The notes: generated by a model from the sequence alone, not told the origin. Shown: positions 26,951-33,930, counted from the first letter of the stretch. The stretch: 64,000 nt of DNA from Nitrosopumilus sp. (GCA_965218695.1 OZ244651.1:416001-480000); one strand, 5' to 3'. A program made the numbers and translations.

Positions 26951-27011
26951 ACCTGAGGGAAAAGGAATGTTTCGGACGCCCCCGCGTGTCCATGCGTGCT
27001 AACAATCCAAA

Positions 27012-27137
27012 TCATCGCGTCTTGTCCTGCGCATCCATGATATCTCTTGTCGTCTCGTAGGAATAACGGAACGCCATAAGCAACACCATCGTGTCAATCA
27101 CGGCGTATTTTTTGGTCGGATCCAAATCGTCCCATGC
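27012..27137 (-). pseudogene. PIN-domain-like fragment
   Basis: KKYAVIDTMVLL resembles the PIN first strand (xxDTxxL); stops about 40 codons after the start. Confidence 0.4.
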
Positions 27138-27951
27138 CATCCCTCCTGCGATCCCATGTCGCTTTCTACTGCATCGCGAGCAGTTTAAGGGCATTCTGAA
27201 TCACATGGTATGGCTTGCGGCTTTCAGTTTTTTCAGGTATCCTGCCGTGTCGATGTCACTTCTGCACTCCAGATCTCCACGGAAATAATTGCGTATCGCC
27301 CTGTCCATCAGTTCCGACGCCCCCTCTATGGACTCGTGCGTGGCGCAGAACACCACGGCTCCATTTGGTGATGATGCTGTTTGGACTGCAAAGTGGAAGA
27401 ACATAAAACAGGAAATCCGGATCAAGATTTGCCTGTACAACCGCATGATGCGCGCATCACAGGAGCCAATCGCAATGACGTGAGGCAAAGATGCATCTTG
27501 CCATACTGTCTTGATCATGAAGGTGGAACTGTAGGGAGGTTGTGCAACTCCCATGTGTTACGGGTATCCAAACCCGTTGATGTCATGTGTTGGCAATACG
27601 TCTGATCCAGTCCGATTTGGGTTGGTCGGGCTGTTTTTTAAAGATTTGTGGGCAGGTTCGACGTAAATCGGATATTTTGATCATTATTGCCCCCGATCCT
27701 GCAGAATCCGATGCAAATGTCATGGCTCGTGTGCAGGTACAGGCAGGCGTTGCGCGCGGATTTGGATGAATGGCACACAGCTACCGCTAGGAATCTCTCC
27801 GTATCCGGAGGAAAAGCAGGCCAAACTCCTACAGTCAATATCGTTTTCGGCAAGCCGGAGGGGGACAAGAGGGGGCGTTGAGCCGCCCCTCATCTGTGCA
27901 GGGGCGGCAAAACGCACCCGGGGTTGTTTAATCTCCCCATGGCGCCCAGAC

Positions 27952-29019
27952 TCAGGATTCGGCGATGCGCTTTATTCTCTGGAATTTTCGTCTGACAAAA
28001 TCCCTGTCCTGGGTCCTGTACTCGGCGTCGTGTTCAAGCATCTCCCAGACCCATTCGAGCATCTGCCTGGCCACGGCAACCCTTGCCTTCATGGGCCCTA
28101 TGCGGGCTGCCAGTCTCTGGTAGCGTGCCCCTATCCGGGCATCGTGCCGGACTGCGACGAAGGCGGCCTCGACCATGGCGCGGCGCAGCCAGACAGAACC
28201 GCGCTTTGTGATGCCACCGGTCCTGACTGTCTCCCCGCTGTTGCGGTGTTTTGGCGCCAGGCCTGCATACGAGACCAGCTTTTCGGCGTTGGCGAACCTC
28301 TTGTGGTCGACTATTTCGGCAAGTATGGTTACTGCCGTGACGTATCCTATTCCGGGTATGGTCATGATCAGTCGTGCCCGCCTGTCGCTCATCGCAATCC
28401 CGGCTATCTTTTTTTCAAATTTTGACACCTGCTTTAGTATGGTGTCGATGATGGCTAGGTGCGACTGCACCGCCATGCAGTCAACCTCCCTCAGGGGCAC
28501 GTCCTGCAGCCACTCGATGCCCTGCTCCGTAAACAGCCCCCCTTTGGGCTGCTCGTGCGGGTATTTGGCCAGGATCGCGTGGATGCGGTTCTTGGGGCCT
28601 GAGGCGGACATCTTCATGTCCAGGCGGGTGCGGGTCAGTTCGCGCAGATCCCGCGCGGGCTTGTCGGCCACGAACGATTCGGGGATCATGTCCAGCCTGC
28701 ACAGGTCTGCCAGCTTTTCCGAGTCGGCCTTGTCGTTTTTGTACACGGTTTCGGTTATTATCTTCGTGTTGTGCGGGTGGGCCAGCAGGGTGTCGATGCC
28801 CGCATCCTCGAGCATGTCGTGCACGACTATCCAGTAGTTGGCCGTGGATTCGCAGACGGCCGTGGCCGGCACGTACCCTTCCTTGTGGATCATCTTGATG
28901 AATCCGGTTATTCCCCGAACGTTGTTGTCAAATTCAGTCTGCTTTAGTATGTCCTTGGTACTTCCCTTGATCGTTGTAACGCATTTCTTTTTGTGAACGT
29001 CTATTCCAACGTAATACGT
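27952..29019 (-). CDS. IS110-family DEDD recombinase (ACG at the expected start position)
   Basis: GIDVHK, CESTA, KNDKAD, IPGIG, YAGLAP..NSG; GGAGGTGA ribosome site followed by ACG-TAT-TAC. The ORF track extends to 29070. Confidence 0.9.
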   Translation of the reverse strand, partial: TYYVGIDVHKKKCVTTIKGSTKDILKQTEFDNNVRGITGFIKMIHKEGYVPATAVCESTANYWIVVHDMLEDAGIDTLLAHPHNTKIITETVYKNDKADSEKLADLCRLDMIPESFVADKPARDLRELTRTRLDMKMSASGPKNRIHAILAKYPHEQPKGGLFTEQGIEWLQDVPLREVDCMAVQSHLAIIDTILKQVSKFEKKIAGIAMSDRRARLIMTIPGIGYVTAVTILAEIVDHKRFANAEKLVSYAGLAPKHRNSGETVRTGGITKRGSVWLRRAMVEAAFVAVRHDARIGARYQRLAARIGPMKARVAVARQMLEWVWEMLEHDAEYRTQDRDFVRRKFQRIKRIAES

Positions 29020-29055
29020 GTTATCACCTCCTTTGCAGTGTATCGGACCCGACCA

Positions 29056-29160
29056 GCGGAAAACTCCCATTCACCGTCAAAGCGGTATTTGACCATCCGC
29101 ATACCTTGAGTCACTCTAACTAACGCCCTCATACGTGGCAAGTTGCACTCGACTCTCAGG
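29056..29160 (-). ncRNA. Predicted bridge/seek RNA of IS110 element A
   Basis: Two hairpins with internal loops. Segments GUGCAACU and UAGUUAG match the two flanks, and AUGGGAG matches the element end. Confidence 0.8.
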
Positions 29161-29264
29161 TCCAACAGGGTAAATGCCATGATCGCCGCTATAACGGCAA
29201 CACATGGCGTCTAACTACGTTCGCCACTACACGCTATGAAACAAATGATGCCCGAACCGGCCAT

Positions 29265-29346
29265 GAGTTTCCTACAAGACAGTCCAAAAATGAGGGCTAA
29301 GATTCATAGCTAAAACCACATTTTTGGACAAGTTTTTAGGAAAGTC
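29265..29346. other. att-like site, central (82-bp imperfect palindrome, core AGATTCATA)
   Basis: TTTCCTA..GTCCAAAAATG-AGGGCTA-AGATTCATA-GCTAAAACCA-CATTTTTGGAC..TAGGAAA; core at 29300..29308. Confidence 0.65.
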
Positions 29347-29585
29347 GCGTTTTGTTTTGGCGTCGTCGGATTCATTGCATGTAGTGCAACATGGCAGGAC
29401 TTAAACCCCTATGGGCAACAACGTGCCGCCTACCTGTCAAACATGGCTAACGTATACCAAAAGTGAAAAGTTGATGCGATTGTCACATATTTTACCACAT
29501 CTAAAGTTATACCAATTTCACGTCCCACAGTCAATGAAGATCAAGACGATGTTGAAAAGATACGCCGCTGAGACAGACTGCGATA

Positions 29586-30839
29586 TACCAAAAGTGAAAA
29601 GTTGATGCGATTGTCACATATTTTACCACATCTAAAGTTATACCAATTTCACGTCCCACAGTCAATGAAGATCAAGACGATGTTGAAAAGATACGCCGCT
29701 GAGACAGACTGCGATACCAAGGACCGCATGATGCTGATCATCAGAGTCAAACGTGATGGAATAACCATGAGGGATTCTGCAAAATCCCTGGGAAAGTCAG
29801 CCTCGTGGGGCTACAAGTGGCACGAGCGCTACCTGGAAGTCGGATTTGACAGGCTGGGAAACATGCCGCGCTCCGGCAGGCCGACCAAGGCGAGCAAGGC
29901 AGACATGAAGAAGATCAGAAAGGCCGCATGCAGGAAACCTGTCTGGACTGGCATGGAGATGCAGCAATACATCCAACAGAAGACCGGAGTGAAGTACGAA
30001 CTCGGATATGTGCGCCAGATACTGCGCGGGTGGGGCTATTCCCAAAAGGTTCCCGTAGGAAAACATGCAAGAAGGGCGCCTGACGAGGAGATCAGGAAAT
30101 TCCAAAAAGAGATGCCAGAGCTTATAAAAAAAAGAACAGTGAAGGAACAGTCGTAGCGATACAGGACGAGTCCATAGTAATCTCCGATGCGCGGCCGCGA
30201 AGACGCGGCTACACCAGGAAGGGAATACGGGCGTTTTTCACGTACACCGGCTCACACTCCAAGACGATAATCCATGGACTAATCACCACGGACGGCAGGG
30301 GCATGTTCCGGCAGTACGATGCGTTTACCAAGGACACCTTTGAGGACTTTCTAAGGCAGGCGATGTACAGGTTCAAGAAGATCTGCCTGATCATGGACAA
30401 GGCCTCCCAGCACAGGGCATCAAACATACGCAAACTGCTTGATGGCACAGACGGCCTGGAGATAATCTTCCTGCCAACTGCGACCCCGGACCTGAGCGCC
30501 ATAGAGACGTACTGGAGGGATCTCAAACGGGCAGTGCTTGACGTGCCGTACACCAGCCTGAGCATGCTCCGCGAGGCGATCACCAGGTACGCGAGGTACA
30601 AAAAACCAAATCTGGTAGTCGAGAATTTTCTGTACAGGGCCATCTAGAACGACATCAAACCACACCGGATCCACGCCGCCTAGCGTGTGCCATGCACGGC
30701 GCATCAGAGCATGCAATGTCTAATGTTCGGGGCGTCTTTTCTCGTCATTTGGGAATTCAACGCACCTCGTAATTTCCAGAGATGGATGTCGCATCAAAAA
30801 TTTATGAGCGATTTTGATATGAATTTTTCATTGCTGGTA
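29586..30839 (+). mobile_element. IS630-family element, inner intact copy
   Basis: TIRs TACCA..A.TGAAAA.TT.AT; TA duplication at 29584..29585 and 30840..30841. Confidence 0.9.
29665..30647 (+). CDS. IS630 transposase in two frames joined by a probable -1 frameshift at A8 (30126..30133)
   Basis: HTH part (RSGRP) ends at 30156; the -1 frame gives QDES, MDKASQH, PDLSAIE. Confidence 0.8.
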
Positions 30840-30982
30840 TACCAAGGACCGCACCTATGTTAACCACCCCGGAGCATTTACCACGATAATCCCGCTATAT
30901 TTCCGGTCTGTGCCTGAGTTGCACGGTACATCATTTATAGCTGACGCTGGGCAGCATGATCAGGATGCAGGATCCGCCAGGT

Positions 30983-32074
30983 TCACTTCTGGCGCGCCCT
31001 TTTCATCTTGGCCAGCTTGCGTCTGTACAGTCTTTCGTTGTGTGACGAGTATATCGTCCTGGTATTGAGCATGTGCCATGCTATGGTGAGCATCTTGTTT
31101 GCCACCACCACTACGGCAGGCCCGTGCTTGTCTGCATGTCTCCTGCGTGCAGACTCGTATACTGCCGCCATCCTGTCATCATGCCGCACCGCGGTGTTTG
31201 CAGCCTCCATCATGGCCCAGTTGACAATTTTGTTGCGGTCAATCTTTTTTATCCTTCCAGTATACAGCTGGTTGCCGGACTGGTAGACTACGGGACACAT
31301 GCCTGCCCACGAGACCAGGTTTTTCGGGCTCTCAAACCTGGAGATATCCCCTATCTCTGCTGCAAGCAGCAGTGCGGTGTATGTTCCCAGACCGGTCAGG
31401 CTTGCAAGAATCTCTGCGTCCTCGTTTTGTGCCGCCTCCCTGTCAAGGCATTCGTCCATGACTGCTATCTCCTCGGTCAGGTTTCTCATCTGCCGGACGC
31501 ATTGCTGGAGCACCATCTCGTCATGTGCAGAGCCGAGGCCTGCGGATTCCAGCTGTTCTGTTGCCTTTGCAGAATACATATCAGTGGCCTCCACTGCCAC
31601 GTCATACCTGTCAAGCAGGGCGTGGACGCGGTTTATCACGCGCGTCCTGTCTTGGACGATCCTTATCCTCTGCCTGACCATCTGCCTTATCCCCCTGATG
31701 TTGGCAGGCGGCACGTAGCACTCGGGTATCATGTCCATCCTCAACACCTGTGCAATCTTCTCTGCATCCACCCTGTCTGTCTTTTTTCCTGTCTTTGTAA
31801 TTATGGCCATCTTGAACGTGTTGGCAAGCTTGATCTCTATTCCTGCACCCTCAAATGCGGCATATGTGATGTTCCACATGTTGCCCGTAGTCTCGCATGC
31901 CGCGCGGCATCCCCTGCGGGCGTACCTGCGTGCGGCCTTTTCTGCAAACTCCTTTGCGCTTGCTGCCGTGTTTGGGTACTGCCCTCGTTGGAGGACCTTC
32001 CCCCTTTTGTCGACCACGCACACGTCACACTTTTTCTTTCCGATGTCTATTCCTATGCTTATGTTTGTGTTCAT
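30983..32074 (-). CDS. IS110-family DEDD recombinase
   Basis: GIDIGK, CETTG, KTDRVD, LTGLG, WAGMCP..QSG; GGAGGTGA ribosome site. Confidence 0.92.
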   Translation of the reverse strand: MNTNISIGIDIGKKKCDVCVVDKRGKVLQRGQYPNTAASAKEFAEKAARRYARRGCRAACETTGNMWNITYAAFEGAGIEIKLANTFKMAIITKTGKKTDRVDAEKIAQVLRMDMIPECYVPPANIRGIRQMVRQRIRIVQDRTRVINRVHALLDRYDVAVEATDMYSAKATEQLESAGLGSAHDEMVLQQCVRQMRNLTEEIAVMDECLDREAAQNEDAEILASLTGLGTYTALLLAAEIGDISRFESPKNLVSWAGMCPVVYQSGNQLYTGRIKKIDRNKIVNWAMMEAANTAVRHDDRMAAVYESARRRHADKHGPAVVVVANKMLTIAWHMLNTRTIYSSHNERLYRRKLAKMKRARQK

Positions 32075-32115
32075 CCTTTTCTATCACCTCCTTTCGGATA
32101 TCTTGGTAGACCGGA

Positions 32116-32219
32116 AGCTGCACTCACCTATCAGGGCGCGAGGCCCAATTATACAGCAGCTCGGATTGCCCCATTCATGATCAAGGGCGCGTAGCCCATA
32201 CGGTACGAGGGGTCGATCC
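32116..32219 (-). ncRNA. Predicted bridge/seek RNA of IS110 element B
   Basis: Stems GGAU..CCCC/GGGG..AUCC and AGCUGC/GCAGCU, each enclosing a GGGC-N5-GCCC hairpin. Loop strands match target (ACCGUA, AUCAUG) and donor (UGUAU, AUAGGUG). Confidence 0.8.
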
Positions 32220-32695
32220 ACCGCAGCACCTGCGCCGGGGTGGTTTACATGTATTCATGATGCTGATCATCAGAGTCAAACGTGATGGAATAACCATGAG
32301 GGATTCTGCAAAATCCCTGGGAAAGTCAGCCTCGTGGGGCTACAAGTGGCACGAGCGCTACCTGGAAGTCGGATTTGACAGGCTGGGAAACATGCCGCGC
32401 TCCGGCAGGCCGACCAAGGCGAGCAAGGCAGACATGAAGAAGATCAGAAAGGCCGCATGCAGGAAACCTGTCTGGACTGGCATGGAGATGCAGCAATACA
32501 TCCAACAGAAGACCGGAGTAAAGTACGAACTCGGATATGTGCGCCAGATACTGCGCGGGTGGGGCTATTCCCAAAAGGTTCCCGTAGGAAAACATGCAAG
32601 AAGGGCGCCTGACGAGGAGATCAGGAAATTCCAAAAAGAGATGCCAGAGATTATAAAAAAAGAACAGTGAAGGAACAGTCGTCGCGATACAGGAC

Positions 32696-33930
32696 GGCGT
32701 TGTCCACCTTTTGATAATCCTGCTCTATTTCACACTATTTTTGGTTCATTTTGGCATCCCAAACCTGGACTCTGAAGGGGTTTCTGGTGTCGGCAGGCTT
32801 GCGGTTGGTCGTTTTTGAGCCGTTTTCATCTAGTGGTGCATGGCATCCGCTGGAACCGGAAACCGGCATTCTGCCCCTACCGGGACCCCTATGCTATCAG
32901 GTTGTAGCAGATGCTTCGCAGGATTATCTGGAGTCTCTGCATGGGAAACGTCTTTGCGGCCACGACGGAACCGAACCTCTCCTTCATGGATGAGAACACG
33001 GACTCGACAAGACTGCGCTGGTGGTACACCTTCTCGAACCCTTCCCGATCCCGCCTGAACCAGCGGAGCATCTCTGCCCTGGGATTGAAGCCCTTTGCGG
33101 TGTGGTTCTTGCGGGGCCAGATCACCGGTTTTCTGCCGCTGTCGTAGATCATCTTGCAGTTTGCGTGCGCGTCATACGCCGAATCCAGCATGACGTGCCC
33201 GTCGCCGTCTGGCGTGCGGGCAAACATCTTCCGGAATATCGGCGAGTCGTGGGCAAGTCCGGGCGTCACCATGCATGCGGCGATCCTTCCGTGCGGGGCT
33301 ACCAGTATGTGCAGCTTGACGAACTGACGCCTGGGTATGATGCCCTTCTTGGCATCCTCCCAGTCGGCGTAGATGTTGATGGAAAATCCGCTTGCGTCCC
33401 CAAGGAGCGGACCGTGAGCGTCACTCCCTGCCTGTCCCAGGATCACTTCCATCAGAATCTTCTGCTTTTCTGCCAGCCTCTTGGCTGCCGCATGCAGGCA
33501 CGATTTGGACGGAACGGCTTTTAAGCCGCAGACGTGCAGTGAACCTGGGTTTGCCTCGAGGTACGAGACGTGTTCCCGGTACGAGTTGCCGCGAAACTCC
33601 TTGTCCATGAGGCAGATCAAGTAGGAGATCATGCGCCGGTCCTTGTCGGACTTGGGCTTGCAGATCTCGTACAGGATGGTGGTAAGGGCGAGGATTCCGA
33701 TTGACACTCGTTTCCCCTCCCCACTCCTTCGCATCTCGTATTTTTTGCTGTAGCCTTTCGGGCGCACCCATTTCTTCTTGTCTTCCTTGTCTCTGTTCTT
33801 TGCTTTCCTCTTTTTTCTATTGGAATTCATTAATTGTGGGCAGGATCGGTGATCCAAAACTTTTCGGATGTCTGACGCTAATGATCTTTAAGCGTAACGC
33901 TGCTTTTTTGAGGAAGATGTGGACAACGCC
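32696..33930 (-). mobile_element. IS5-like element (type b), copy 1
   Basis: TIR GGCGTTGTCCAC; 10-bp TSD GATACAGGAC at 32686..32695 and 33931..33940. Confidence 0.92.
32889..33857 (-). CDS. IS5-like DDE transposase
   Basis: GDASGF, KLH, LDSAYD, YHQRSLVES. Confidence 0.88.
   Translation of the reverse strand: MDHRSCPQLMNSNRKKRKAKNRDKEDKKKWVRPKGYSKKYEMRRSGEGKRVSIGILALTTILYEICKPKSDKDRRMISYLICLMDKEFRGNSYREHVSYLEANPGSLHVCGLKAVPSKSCLHAAAKRLAEKQKILMEVILGQAGSDAHGPLLGDASGFSINIYADWEDAKKGIIPRRQFVKLHILVAPHGRIAACMVTPGLAHDSPIFRKMFARTPDGDGHVMLDSAYDAHANCKMIYDSGRKPVIWPRKNHTAKGFNPRAEMLRWFRRDREGFEKVYHQRSLVESVFSSMKERFGSVVAAKTFPMQRLQIILRSICYNLIA

Follow-up and report, generated by a model that had tools for sequence, protein, structure and literature searches.

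Two IS110-family elements of a Nitrosopumilus genome probably carry a bridge-type guide RNA upstream of the recombinase gene, with the guide order of IS1111

A stretch of 64,000 nucleotides from Nitrosopumilus sp. (GCA_965218695.1 OZ244651.1:416001-480000; hereafter the window, with coordinates counted from its first letter) carries two IS110-family insertion sequences (ISs), E1 and E2, whose recombinase genes both lie on the minus strand. We conclude, at a probability of about 85%, that the left ends of E1 and E2 encode a bispecific bridge (or seek) RNA on the gene strand, immediately upstream of the DEDD recombinase gene, and that this RNA would guide insertion. The conclusion builds on the element boundaries, the 2-nt cores, a conserved RNA fold, and the covariation of its loop strands with the flanks and ends of the elements, all of which are observed. 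In the order of its loops and its location upstream of the gene the RNA resembles that of IS621, whereas in the roles of its strands, and in the subterminal repeats of the elements, it follows the seekRNAs of IS1111. What is unusual is that IS1111 polarity occurs together with a plain two-loop fold and with a position upstream of the gene, as in IS621. Ammonia-oxidizing archaea and haloarchaea have this combination in common, while the bacterial relatives examined in the same group of the recombinase tree keep the RNA downstream.

The recombinase genes (27952-29070 in E1 and 30983-32074 in E2) encode proteins that are 32% identical to each other in an alignment; profile searches identify PF01548 (DEDD_Tnp_IS110) and PF02371 (Transposase_20) in both, at 69.5 and 99.2 bits in E1 and at 102 and 76.8 bits in E2, which has 363 residues. 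The host genome is archaeal, its SSU rRNA scoring 1468 bits with the archaeal model, and contains 15 IS110-type N-terminal domains in all (PF01548 search) and a single full copy of E2. The insertion of E2 splits an IS630-like copy at ...GGACCG CA TGATGC..., and because the same site is intact in ~15 other IS630-like copies, the ends of E2 (minus strand) can be set at 30854-32255, with CA on each side (plus strand, 30852-3 and 32256-7), corresponding to a TG core on the gene strand. E1 (minus strand) has a second, near-identical copy in the genome, itself split by another IS, and a frameshifted relative, E1c, with 86-88% identity. Its host is the end of another repeat, the intact form of which, ...GTTGTG(C/A)AACT AACTA, is found elsewhere in the genome, and comparison of the E1 copies and E1c with these intact ends places E1 at 27550-29210, with CT on each side (plus strand, 27548-9 and 29211-2), or AG on the gene strand. 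The empty-site comparisons reveal no target duplication beyond the core in either element. Both elements have subterminal inverted repeats that begin with ATGT, the spacing to the core being 5 nt on the side upstream of the gene and 3 nt on the other; the two spacings and the ATGT start had been reported in an earlier, preliminary description of this DNA. In E2 a 12-bp repeat, matching at 11/12 positions, is formed by ATGTAAACCACC (32239-32250, minus strand) and ATGTTAACCACC (30857-30868, plus-strand reading), and in E1 a repeat of 7-9 bp is formed by ATGTGTT (29199-29205, minus strand) and ATGTGTTAC (27553-27561, plus strand).

The RNA of both elements is located on the gene strand between the left end and a GGAGGTGA ribosome site, and comprises a closing stem that encloses a target loop first and a donor loop second. 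The E2 RNA (32105-32222, minus strand; RNAalifold consensus and pair statistics) has its target loop module at 32169-32212 and its donor loop module at 32117-32160, with GGAGGTGA at 32084-32091. In the E1 RNA (29041-29167, minus strand; consensus fold of 6 relatives and minimum free energy fold) the closing stem pairs 29159-29167 with 29041-29049, the target and donor loop modules occupy 29108-29155 and 29056-29100, respectively, and GGAGGTGA is at 29024-29031. The two-loop architecture emerged unprompted when RNAalifold was applied to 23 E2-type sequences, consisting of the other IS110-type elements of the genome and relatives of the same class; 17 of 24 pairs were compensatory, with changes on both sides, and 95% of cells were paired, values that 0/500 shuffled controls attained, while controls with slid partners gave 2-8 compensatory pairs. 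Six E1-type sequences, among them L066 from the unpublished genome G282, yielded the same architecture by RNAalifold, with 6/21 pairs compensatory. About 41 cells of the conserved stems are G.U pairs, which would be A.C mismatches if read on the other strand, favoring the gene strand as the one transcribed. A search of 27000-33000 against all Rfam families (E≤10) found no matching family, returning only two chance RsmY matches at ~16 bits.

The preliminary description held that the two RNAs are dissimilar in sequence and share a register, and this is correct: the recombinases are only distantly alike, a covariance model built on the E2 type (R1) does not match the E1 RNA at E≤0.01, and the strands are of equal length in E1 and E2 (target 5' strand 11 nt, target 3' strand 12 nt, donor 5' strand 9 nt, donor 3' strand 12 nt). 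In both elements the core occupies positions 8-9 of both 3' strands, and the two 3'-strand cores are 51 nt (E2) and 52 nt (E1) apart, also as described. The placement of the core at positions 9-10 of the 5' target strand is borne out in E1, which has CU there, while E2 has UA instead of the expected CA, so that a U.G wobble results. From the 3'-strand core to GGAGGTGA the distance is 33 nt in E2, within the 33-34 nt proposed, and 32 nt in E1, one base outside it. For the whole structure, given as ~105 nt, the RNA measures ~96 nt (E2) and ~100 nt (E1) from outer stem to outer stem and about 118-127 nt with a further closing stem, the non-coding end that holds it being about 160-180 nt.

The strands of the target loop correspond to the two flanks of each element. 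The sequence of the 3' strand is that of the flank preceding the left end, followed by the core and by 2-3 nt of the element, and the 5' strand is complementary to the core and the flank past the opposite, gene-downstream end. The 3' target strand of E1, GUUAGUUAGAGU (29113-29124, minus strand), is thus identical to its left flank and core (TAGTT AG), and its 5' target strand, GAGUGCAACUU (29140-29150, minus strand), is complementary to the top strand of the core and right flank (AGTTGCAC, 8 nt). In E2 the 3' target strand, UUGAUCAUGAAU (32173-32184, minus strand), is identical to the left flank and core and to the initial 3 nt of E2 (ATCA TG AAT), and the 5' target strand (32198-32208, minus strand) forms Watson-Crick pairs at 5/8 variable positions, with the core read via the U.G wobble. 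Two gene-less relics in the host genome also match their own flanks.

Across the E2-type set, with junctions found by motif and elements with unplaced ends excluded, the 5' target strand is complementary to its own right flank at a mean of 5.22 of 8 variable positions, compared with 2.34 when guides and flanks are mismatched (306 pairs; n=18 distinct guides), and none of 20,000 permutations scored as high; this comparison omits 5/23 elements without a placed right end (F912, C4_25, G227, G152, and G175) and, for the guides of F2050 and F192, uses the right flanks of their sister copies (F393 and F213). The 3' target strand is identical to its own left flank at 4.5 of 7 positions, compared with 2.29 for 240 mismatched pairs (n=16 distinct guides), again with 0/20,000 permutations as high, after omission of 7/23 elements without a placed left end (C4_25, G227, G012, G117, G205, G291, and G208). 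Since right ends were placed by the donor strand and not by the target strand, both flank tests are non-circular. The pair E1 and E1c is a case of natural retargeting and provides a clean natural experiment: between the left end and the ribosome site they differ at 15 positions, of which the two target strands, 23 nt together, account for 9 and the donor loop for none. In E1c the 3' target strand has become GCAUAAGAC, identical to the flank of E1c itself (GCATAAG AC).

The donor loop, in turn, matches the ends of the element itself. Its 3' strand is identical to the gene-downstream end plus the core, both in E2 (UGAUAGGUGAGU, 32122-32133, minus strand; ATAGG TG) and in E1 (GAAUGGGAGUUU, 29061-29072, minus strand; ATGGG AG), and tracks the end variants ATAGGTG, ATAGATG, ATGGATG, ACAGATG, and ATGAGTG. 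The first five bases of the 5' donor strand pair with positions +2 to +6 of the left end, as in E2, where positions 1-5 of UGUAUAAUU (32147-32155, minus strand) are complementary to ATACA; E1 shows a weak, 4-nt complementarity of UGGUCAAAU (29087-29095, minus strand) to +3 to +6. Position 4 of this strand tracks left-end position +3, being A or G where the end has T and G where it has C, with one exception (G175). The 3' target strand, by extending into the donor, resembles the handshake guide of IS621 and ISCro4. A general "handshake" reading of the 3' donor strand was also considered and dropped, because the 3 nt past its core fully match the right flank in F777 only, and mostly mismatch it in 5 others checked by eye (E2, E1, F213, F2257, and F393).

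Several observations weigh against the proposal that this RNA guides insertion. The flank tests depend on motif-found junctions, leave out the unplaced ends (7/23 left, 5/23 right), and use two right flanks from sister copies, and the elements compared are relatives, so the permutation counts overstate their independence. The guides of E2 fit its present site moderately, at 5/8 and 4/7 positions, with UA for the expected CA at the core; the F2050/F393 guide scores 2/8; G205 fits only after a 1-nt shift; and the right flank of E1c matches its 5' guide only when 7 nt are skipped. The 5' donor strand lacks core pairing, and in E1 has just 4 complementary bases. Between 65% and 80% of the words of E2 are present in four RNA-library runs, as contigs, in which the E2-like element has other flanks, and contigs alone cannot show transcription, ends, or strand. 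The contigs of these runs (X1-X4, compared with window 30850-32261) include a near-identical E2-type element with at least 3 other left flanks and 2 other right flanks, which share just 1-2 nt and 4 nt with the window flanks past the core, and one contig fuses position 31232 to the E1 target motif, GGTTGTGCAACTAACTA.

Taken with the fold and the flank matches, the bispecific RNA would work as follows. It would be made from the left end and bound by the recombinase, and the closing stem would present two internal-loop modules, the first of which would read the target and the second the donor. The recombinase would exchange strands at the 2-nt core (TG in E2, AG in E1), and the circular element would be inserted without target duplication.

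Comparison with the IS1111 elements for which seekRNAs have been described (ISEc11, ISKpn4, ISPa11, and ISPst6; Siddiquee 2024, PMC11187229, cited throughout for the part of its text available to us) indicates a shared mode of reading. Like E1 and E2, these have a DEDD recombinase, no target duplication, subterminal inverted repeats set in from the ends by a few bases (7-17 bp in IS1111), and a guide complementary to the top strand located 5' of one complementary to the bottom strand, the two overlapping at the insertion point (PMC11187229). They differ in that the IS1111 RNA lies downstream of the gene, whereas that of E1 and E2 precedes it, in the stretch from the left end to the ribosome site; in that IS1111 recombinases are stated to have 330-350 aa, whereas that of E1 has 352-372 aa and that of E2 363 aa; and in that many IS1111 members read the donor through a multi-loop (Durrant 2024, PMC11208160), whereas E1 and E2 use a plain second internal loop. 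The IS1111 C-terminal motif GL-P----S(t)G is fitted by GLAPKHRNSG in E1, and E2 (GMCPVVYQSG) has M for L. Identity to the IS4321 protein is 24% for E2 and 22% for E1.

IS621 and ISCro4 (PMC11208160; PDB 8wt6, 9t56) resemble E1 and E2 in that the left end encodes the RNA ahead of the gene, the target loop comes before the donor loop, and both strands are read around a 2-nt core. Relative to IS621, however, the strand roles are swapped in both loops of E1 and E2; the subterminal repeats are of 7-12 bp, as opposed to 2-3 bp in IS621 and ISCro4; a long closing stem surrounds both loops, unlike in IS621 and ISCro4; and the proteins have very little similarity (phmmer scores of E2 against IS621 and ISCro4, 35-39 bits). 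The upstream location given in the preliminary description is thus upheld by the fold and flank covariation found there, in relatives as well, and so is its claim that the guide order is inverted with respect to IS621, the 5' guide reading the gene-downstream flank. This inverted order is the one published for IS1111 seekRNAs, with the top-strand match 5' of the bottom-strand match (PMC11187229, in its available part), and is therefore not new. ISEc21, an IS110-type element with the order reversed (PMC11187229, likewise), has its guide RNA in the upstream non-coding region and a recombinase of 358 aa, similar to E1 and E2 in these regards; it differs from them in having the bottom-strand match first and no clear subterminal repeats, and sits on a very long separate branch of the tree.

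Counterparts are also found among haloarchaea. The element L069, on a Natrarchaeobaculum plasmid, has an N-terminus equal to that of the representative of the ISH18/ISHvo9/ISHvo10 cluster (names from Durrant Supplementary Table 1) and shares the geometry of E1 and E2: its core is TG, its 14-bp subterminal repeat is spaced from the core by 5 nt at one end and 3 nt at the other, and in its upstream RNA the 3' target strand, GUGGUGCUGACU, equals the left junction and the 3' donor strand, CAUAGGUG, the right end. Its protein is 33-35% identical to that of E2 over part of the length, and its RNA is too different in sequence for R1. Because this cluster has the same layout, the group is one already catalogued; we found no published description of its RNA in the limited literature consulted. 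The idea of a distinct archaeal subgroup with a minimal RNA consequently stands for the shared archaeal layout and fails for the minimal RNA, given a structure of about 120-130 nt in an end of ~160-180 nt; published short seekRNAs measure 74-96 nt, and bridge RNAs 150-250 nt. Two alphaproteobacterial elements (Sphingobium pNIN3 and Rhizobium pRphaR620b) and ISEc45 (E. coli CFT073) fall in the same tree group and have the subterminal repeats ATGAAAG / CTTTCAT. The two alphaproteobacterial elements also share the guide order and a "core + AAU + GG" motif that ends the 3' strands; unlike in E1 and E2, their RNA is downstream of the gene, with the target loop astride the stop codon. ISEc45 has ~55 nt upstream and ~300 nt downstream of its gene, and its core could not be placed.

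A tree of 38 recombinases (including L066) recovers a 34-row group with support of 97/85, which contains three Nitrososphaeria subclades, the ISH18-cluster element L069, the two alphaproteobacterial elements, and ISEc45, with their branching order inside the group left unresolved. This group is apart both from IS4321 with a 341-aa E. coli relative and from ISEc21 with ISEc20; only three deep groups meet, at one node, so the tree cannot place the 34-row group nearer to IS1111 or to IS110. The references are those named here, neither the full ISfinder set nor the IS621 sequence being among the rows: a search of four E. coli chromosomes did not find IS621, matches to IS4321 were dominated by IS4321/IS5075 copies, and tblastn of the E2 protein against plasmids returned generic names only. 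We have not filed E1 and E2 in IS1111 proper, because RNA position and protein length differ and the tree has no readable nearer neighbor, nor in the IS621-type group, because polarity and repeats differ.

The most serious alternative to a new architecture is that E1 and E2 are IS1111 members of an exceptional kind already noted, with the non-coding region upstream, in which case the layout would not be new. The non-coding region does precede the gene in a few IS1111 members (ISMtsp17), and in ISHvo10 and ISAcp5 long non-coding regions flank the gene on either side (PMC11187229, in the part available); the ISH18/ISHvo9/ISHvo10-cluster element has the E1/E2 layout, and the subterminal repeats and guide order of E1 and E2 are those of IS1111. 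The available text of the same paper gives, for the ISMtsp17- and ISHvo10-type exceptions, the position of the region only, with no RNA, fold, or guide order, and a 2026 review, as far as its accessible text goes, still states the plain rule of IS110 RNAs upstream and IS1111 RNAs downstream (PMC13604230). Furthermore, the well-supported group of E1 and E2 is separate from the IS4321-type IS1111 references, and the E1 and E2 recombinases exceed the length stated for IS1111. We consider this alternative possible but rather unlikely. A 2026 preprint reports 86 covariance models, with varied folds, for 32,190 bridge RNAs, and its available portion makes no mention of an upstream layout with IS1111 polarity or of archaeal elements (10.64898/2026.10.21.760802); in the limited literature consulted, no published account of a bridge RNA that lies upstream and has IS1111 polarity came to light, and supplements may list the group.

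The further step, that E1 and E2 exemplify a third architecture of RNA-guided DEDD recombination, in which a left-end RNA has IS1111 polarity, is one to which we give an even chance. On this interpretation the position of the RNA gene and its mode of reading would be separable, and an archaeal lineage (Nitrososphaeria and Halobacteria) of IS1111-like stock would have moved the two-loop module from behind the gene to before it. One left-end promoter could then serve both the RNA and the recombinase mRNA, and the AT-rich subterminal repeat, ~26 nt ahead of the closing stem and in the position of an archaeal TATA box, may be part of it. By the present sorting rule, IS110 is upstream, with bottom-then-top matches, and IS1111 downstream, with top-then-bottom matches; the archaeal elements uncouple position from polarity. 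As the bacterial relatives in the group keep a downstream RNA, the group lends itself to the study of how the module moved and of whether co-expression with the recombinase depends on where it lies. The elements also add compact archaeal recombinase/RNA pairs, of 1.3-1.7 kb in total, with delimited, naturally retargeted target strands, as material for the bridge-recombinase toolbox.

A second alternative would place the working guide RNA in the downstream end, as in canonical IS1111, leaving the upstream structure as a relic or as a leader that controls recombinase translation. There is room for such an RNA, with ~400 nt downstream of the E1 gene and 270-300 nt in the F-type relatives of E2, and the bacterial relatives in the well-supported tree group do keep theirs downstream. 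Among 11 elements, however, the downstream non-coding ends range in length between 47 and 300 nt, whereas the upstream ends are steady at 160-215 nt; G064 retains 47 nt downstream, and E2 with its close relatives ~130 nt, and in all of these the upstream RNA is intact. Flank-specific matches are absent from the downstream ends of these 11 elements (best match of 6.0 to own flanks, 5.67 to those of other elements), in contrast to the upstream ends in the same comparison (7.09 and 5.42), whose loop strands covary with the flanks. The middle of the E1 downstream end is also its least conserved part relative to E1c, with 18-24 differences per 50 nt. We therefore regard a downstream guide as very improbable, and the upstream RNA, as first proposed, as the better candidate. 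The F-type relatives (L023, L024, L025, L026, and others) have a conserved downstream non-coding end that contains a G/C palindrome, GGGGGGCCAGCCCCCC, and a segment, GGGATTATGCATGTCAC, which resembles the 5' target strand of one subfamily and is constant across targets.

That the RNA is an ordinary IS621-type bridge RNA, its inversion only apparent owing to opposite-strand transcription or to mis-assigned left and right ends, can hardly be credited: a 180-degree turn of the DNA does equate the pairing geometry of each loop with that of IS621, so that the two differ in how the RNA is oriented with respect to the element, but the ~41 G.U cells would turn into A.C mismatches on the other strand, an opposite-strand reading, derived from the pairings, would still lack the IS621 strand roles, the boundaries are fixed by empty sites, and IS621 does not have 12-bp subterminal repeats (PMC11208160).

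Upstream guide RNAs of this type occur in other genomes of the class. Homologues of the E2 protein (E≤1e-20) are present in 54/301 sampled genomes, a count that includes G000 and the unpublished G282 and covers all IS110-type relatives, not just those with the upstream-RNA layout. R1, the E2-type model, finds the RNA in 20/151 genomes at E≤1e-5, G000 and the unpublished G132 included, and 12 of these 20 gave no training sequence; where compared (G148, G036, and G012), the matches are directly upstream of a recombinase gene. Applied to 14 loci with filters off, R1 recovers five further untrained RNAs, each immediately ahead of a recombinase gene; one of the five is L062 (48.4 bits), which the tree places as sister to the E1 subclade. 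The model misses the E1 type proper, with no match in L035, L064, and L067 and a score of 10.8 bits (E=0.23) in L066, and it has no match in two haloarchaeal loci, two alphaproteobacterial loci, and L056. For annotation, R1 can be used to mark these elements and gene-less relics in ammonia-oxidizing archaea. Some R1 matches have no PF01548 domain nearby, namely G000:C1:1845395-1845540, 376818-376966, 1147535-1147635, 604957-605112, and 1654876-1655033, together with C2:1566-1711, C6:15604-15764, and C6:29155-29249; these look like left-end/RNA relics or decayed copies, and two of them still match left flanks. In L045 (G152) a G-rich insertion (~13 G, then AGAGGAGGAGG) lies in the linker between the loops, and TA replaces the core in the 3' donor strand; this is probably a decaying copy.

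The start of the E1 gene is atypical. In all three E1 copies the conserved start position, 4-7 nt past GGAGGTGA, reads ACG where relatives have ATG or TTG (window 29010-29070). The frame is open back to an in-frame ATG at 29068-29070, inside the donor loop, and the relatives L059 and L067 show the same open frame from a donor-loop ATG, so that translation of the E1 recombinase may begin within the RNA structure. The second E1 copy is split exactly at the GGAGGT ribosome site by a 1.4-kb IS (G000:C1:2319884-2321314; L034 1785-3215), which encodes a 386-aa rve-type integrase-core protein and has a 16-bp direct repeat on both sides.

The sites of insertion are themselves mobile elements. E1 and its twin are both inserted in the last bases of a repeated element (window 27369-27549 and G000:C1:1713435-1713616) that ends in ...GGTTGTGCAACT, and since intact ends of this element, GTTGTG(C/A)AACTAACTA, are present at C1:1714198, C1:901361, C5:2678, and C5:1277, E1 targets the terminal repeat of another IS. 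IS4321 likewise targets the ends of Tn21. An IS630-like element lies between E1 and E2, in a nested arrangement at 29453-32400: an IS630-like copy, the left end of which is at 29453-29585, is interrupted at TA by a second complete IS630-like copy (~29586-30841), and again, 12 bases past the latter, by E2. What looks like a 130-bp tandem repeat at 29453-29716 is formed by the adjacent left ends of the two IS630-like copies.

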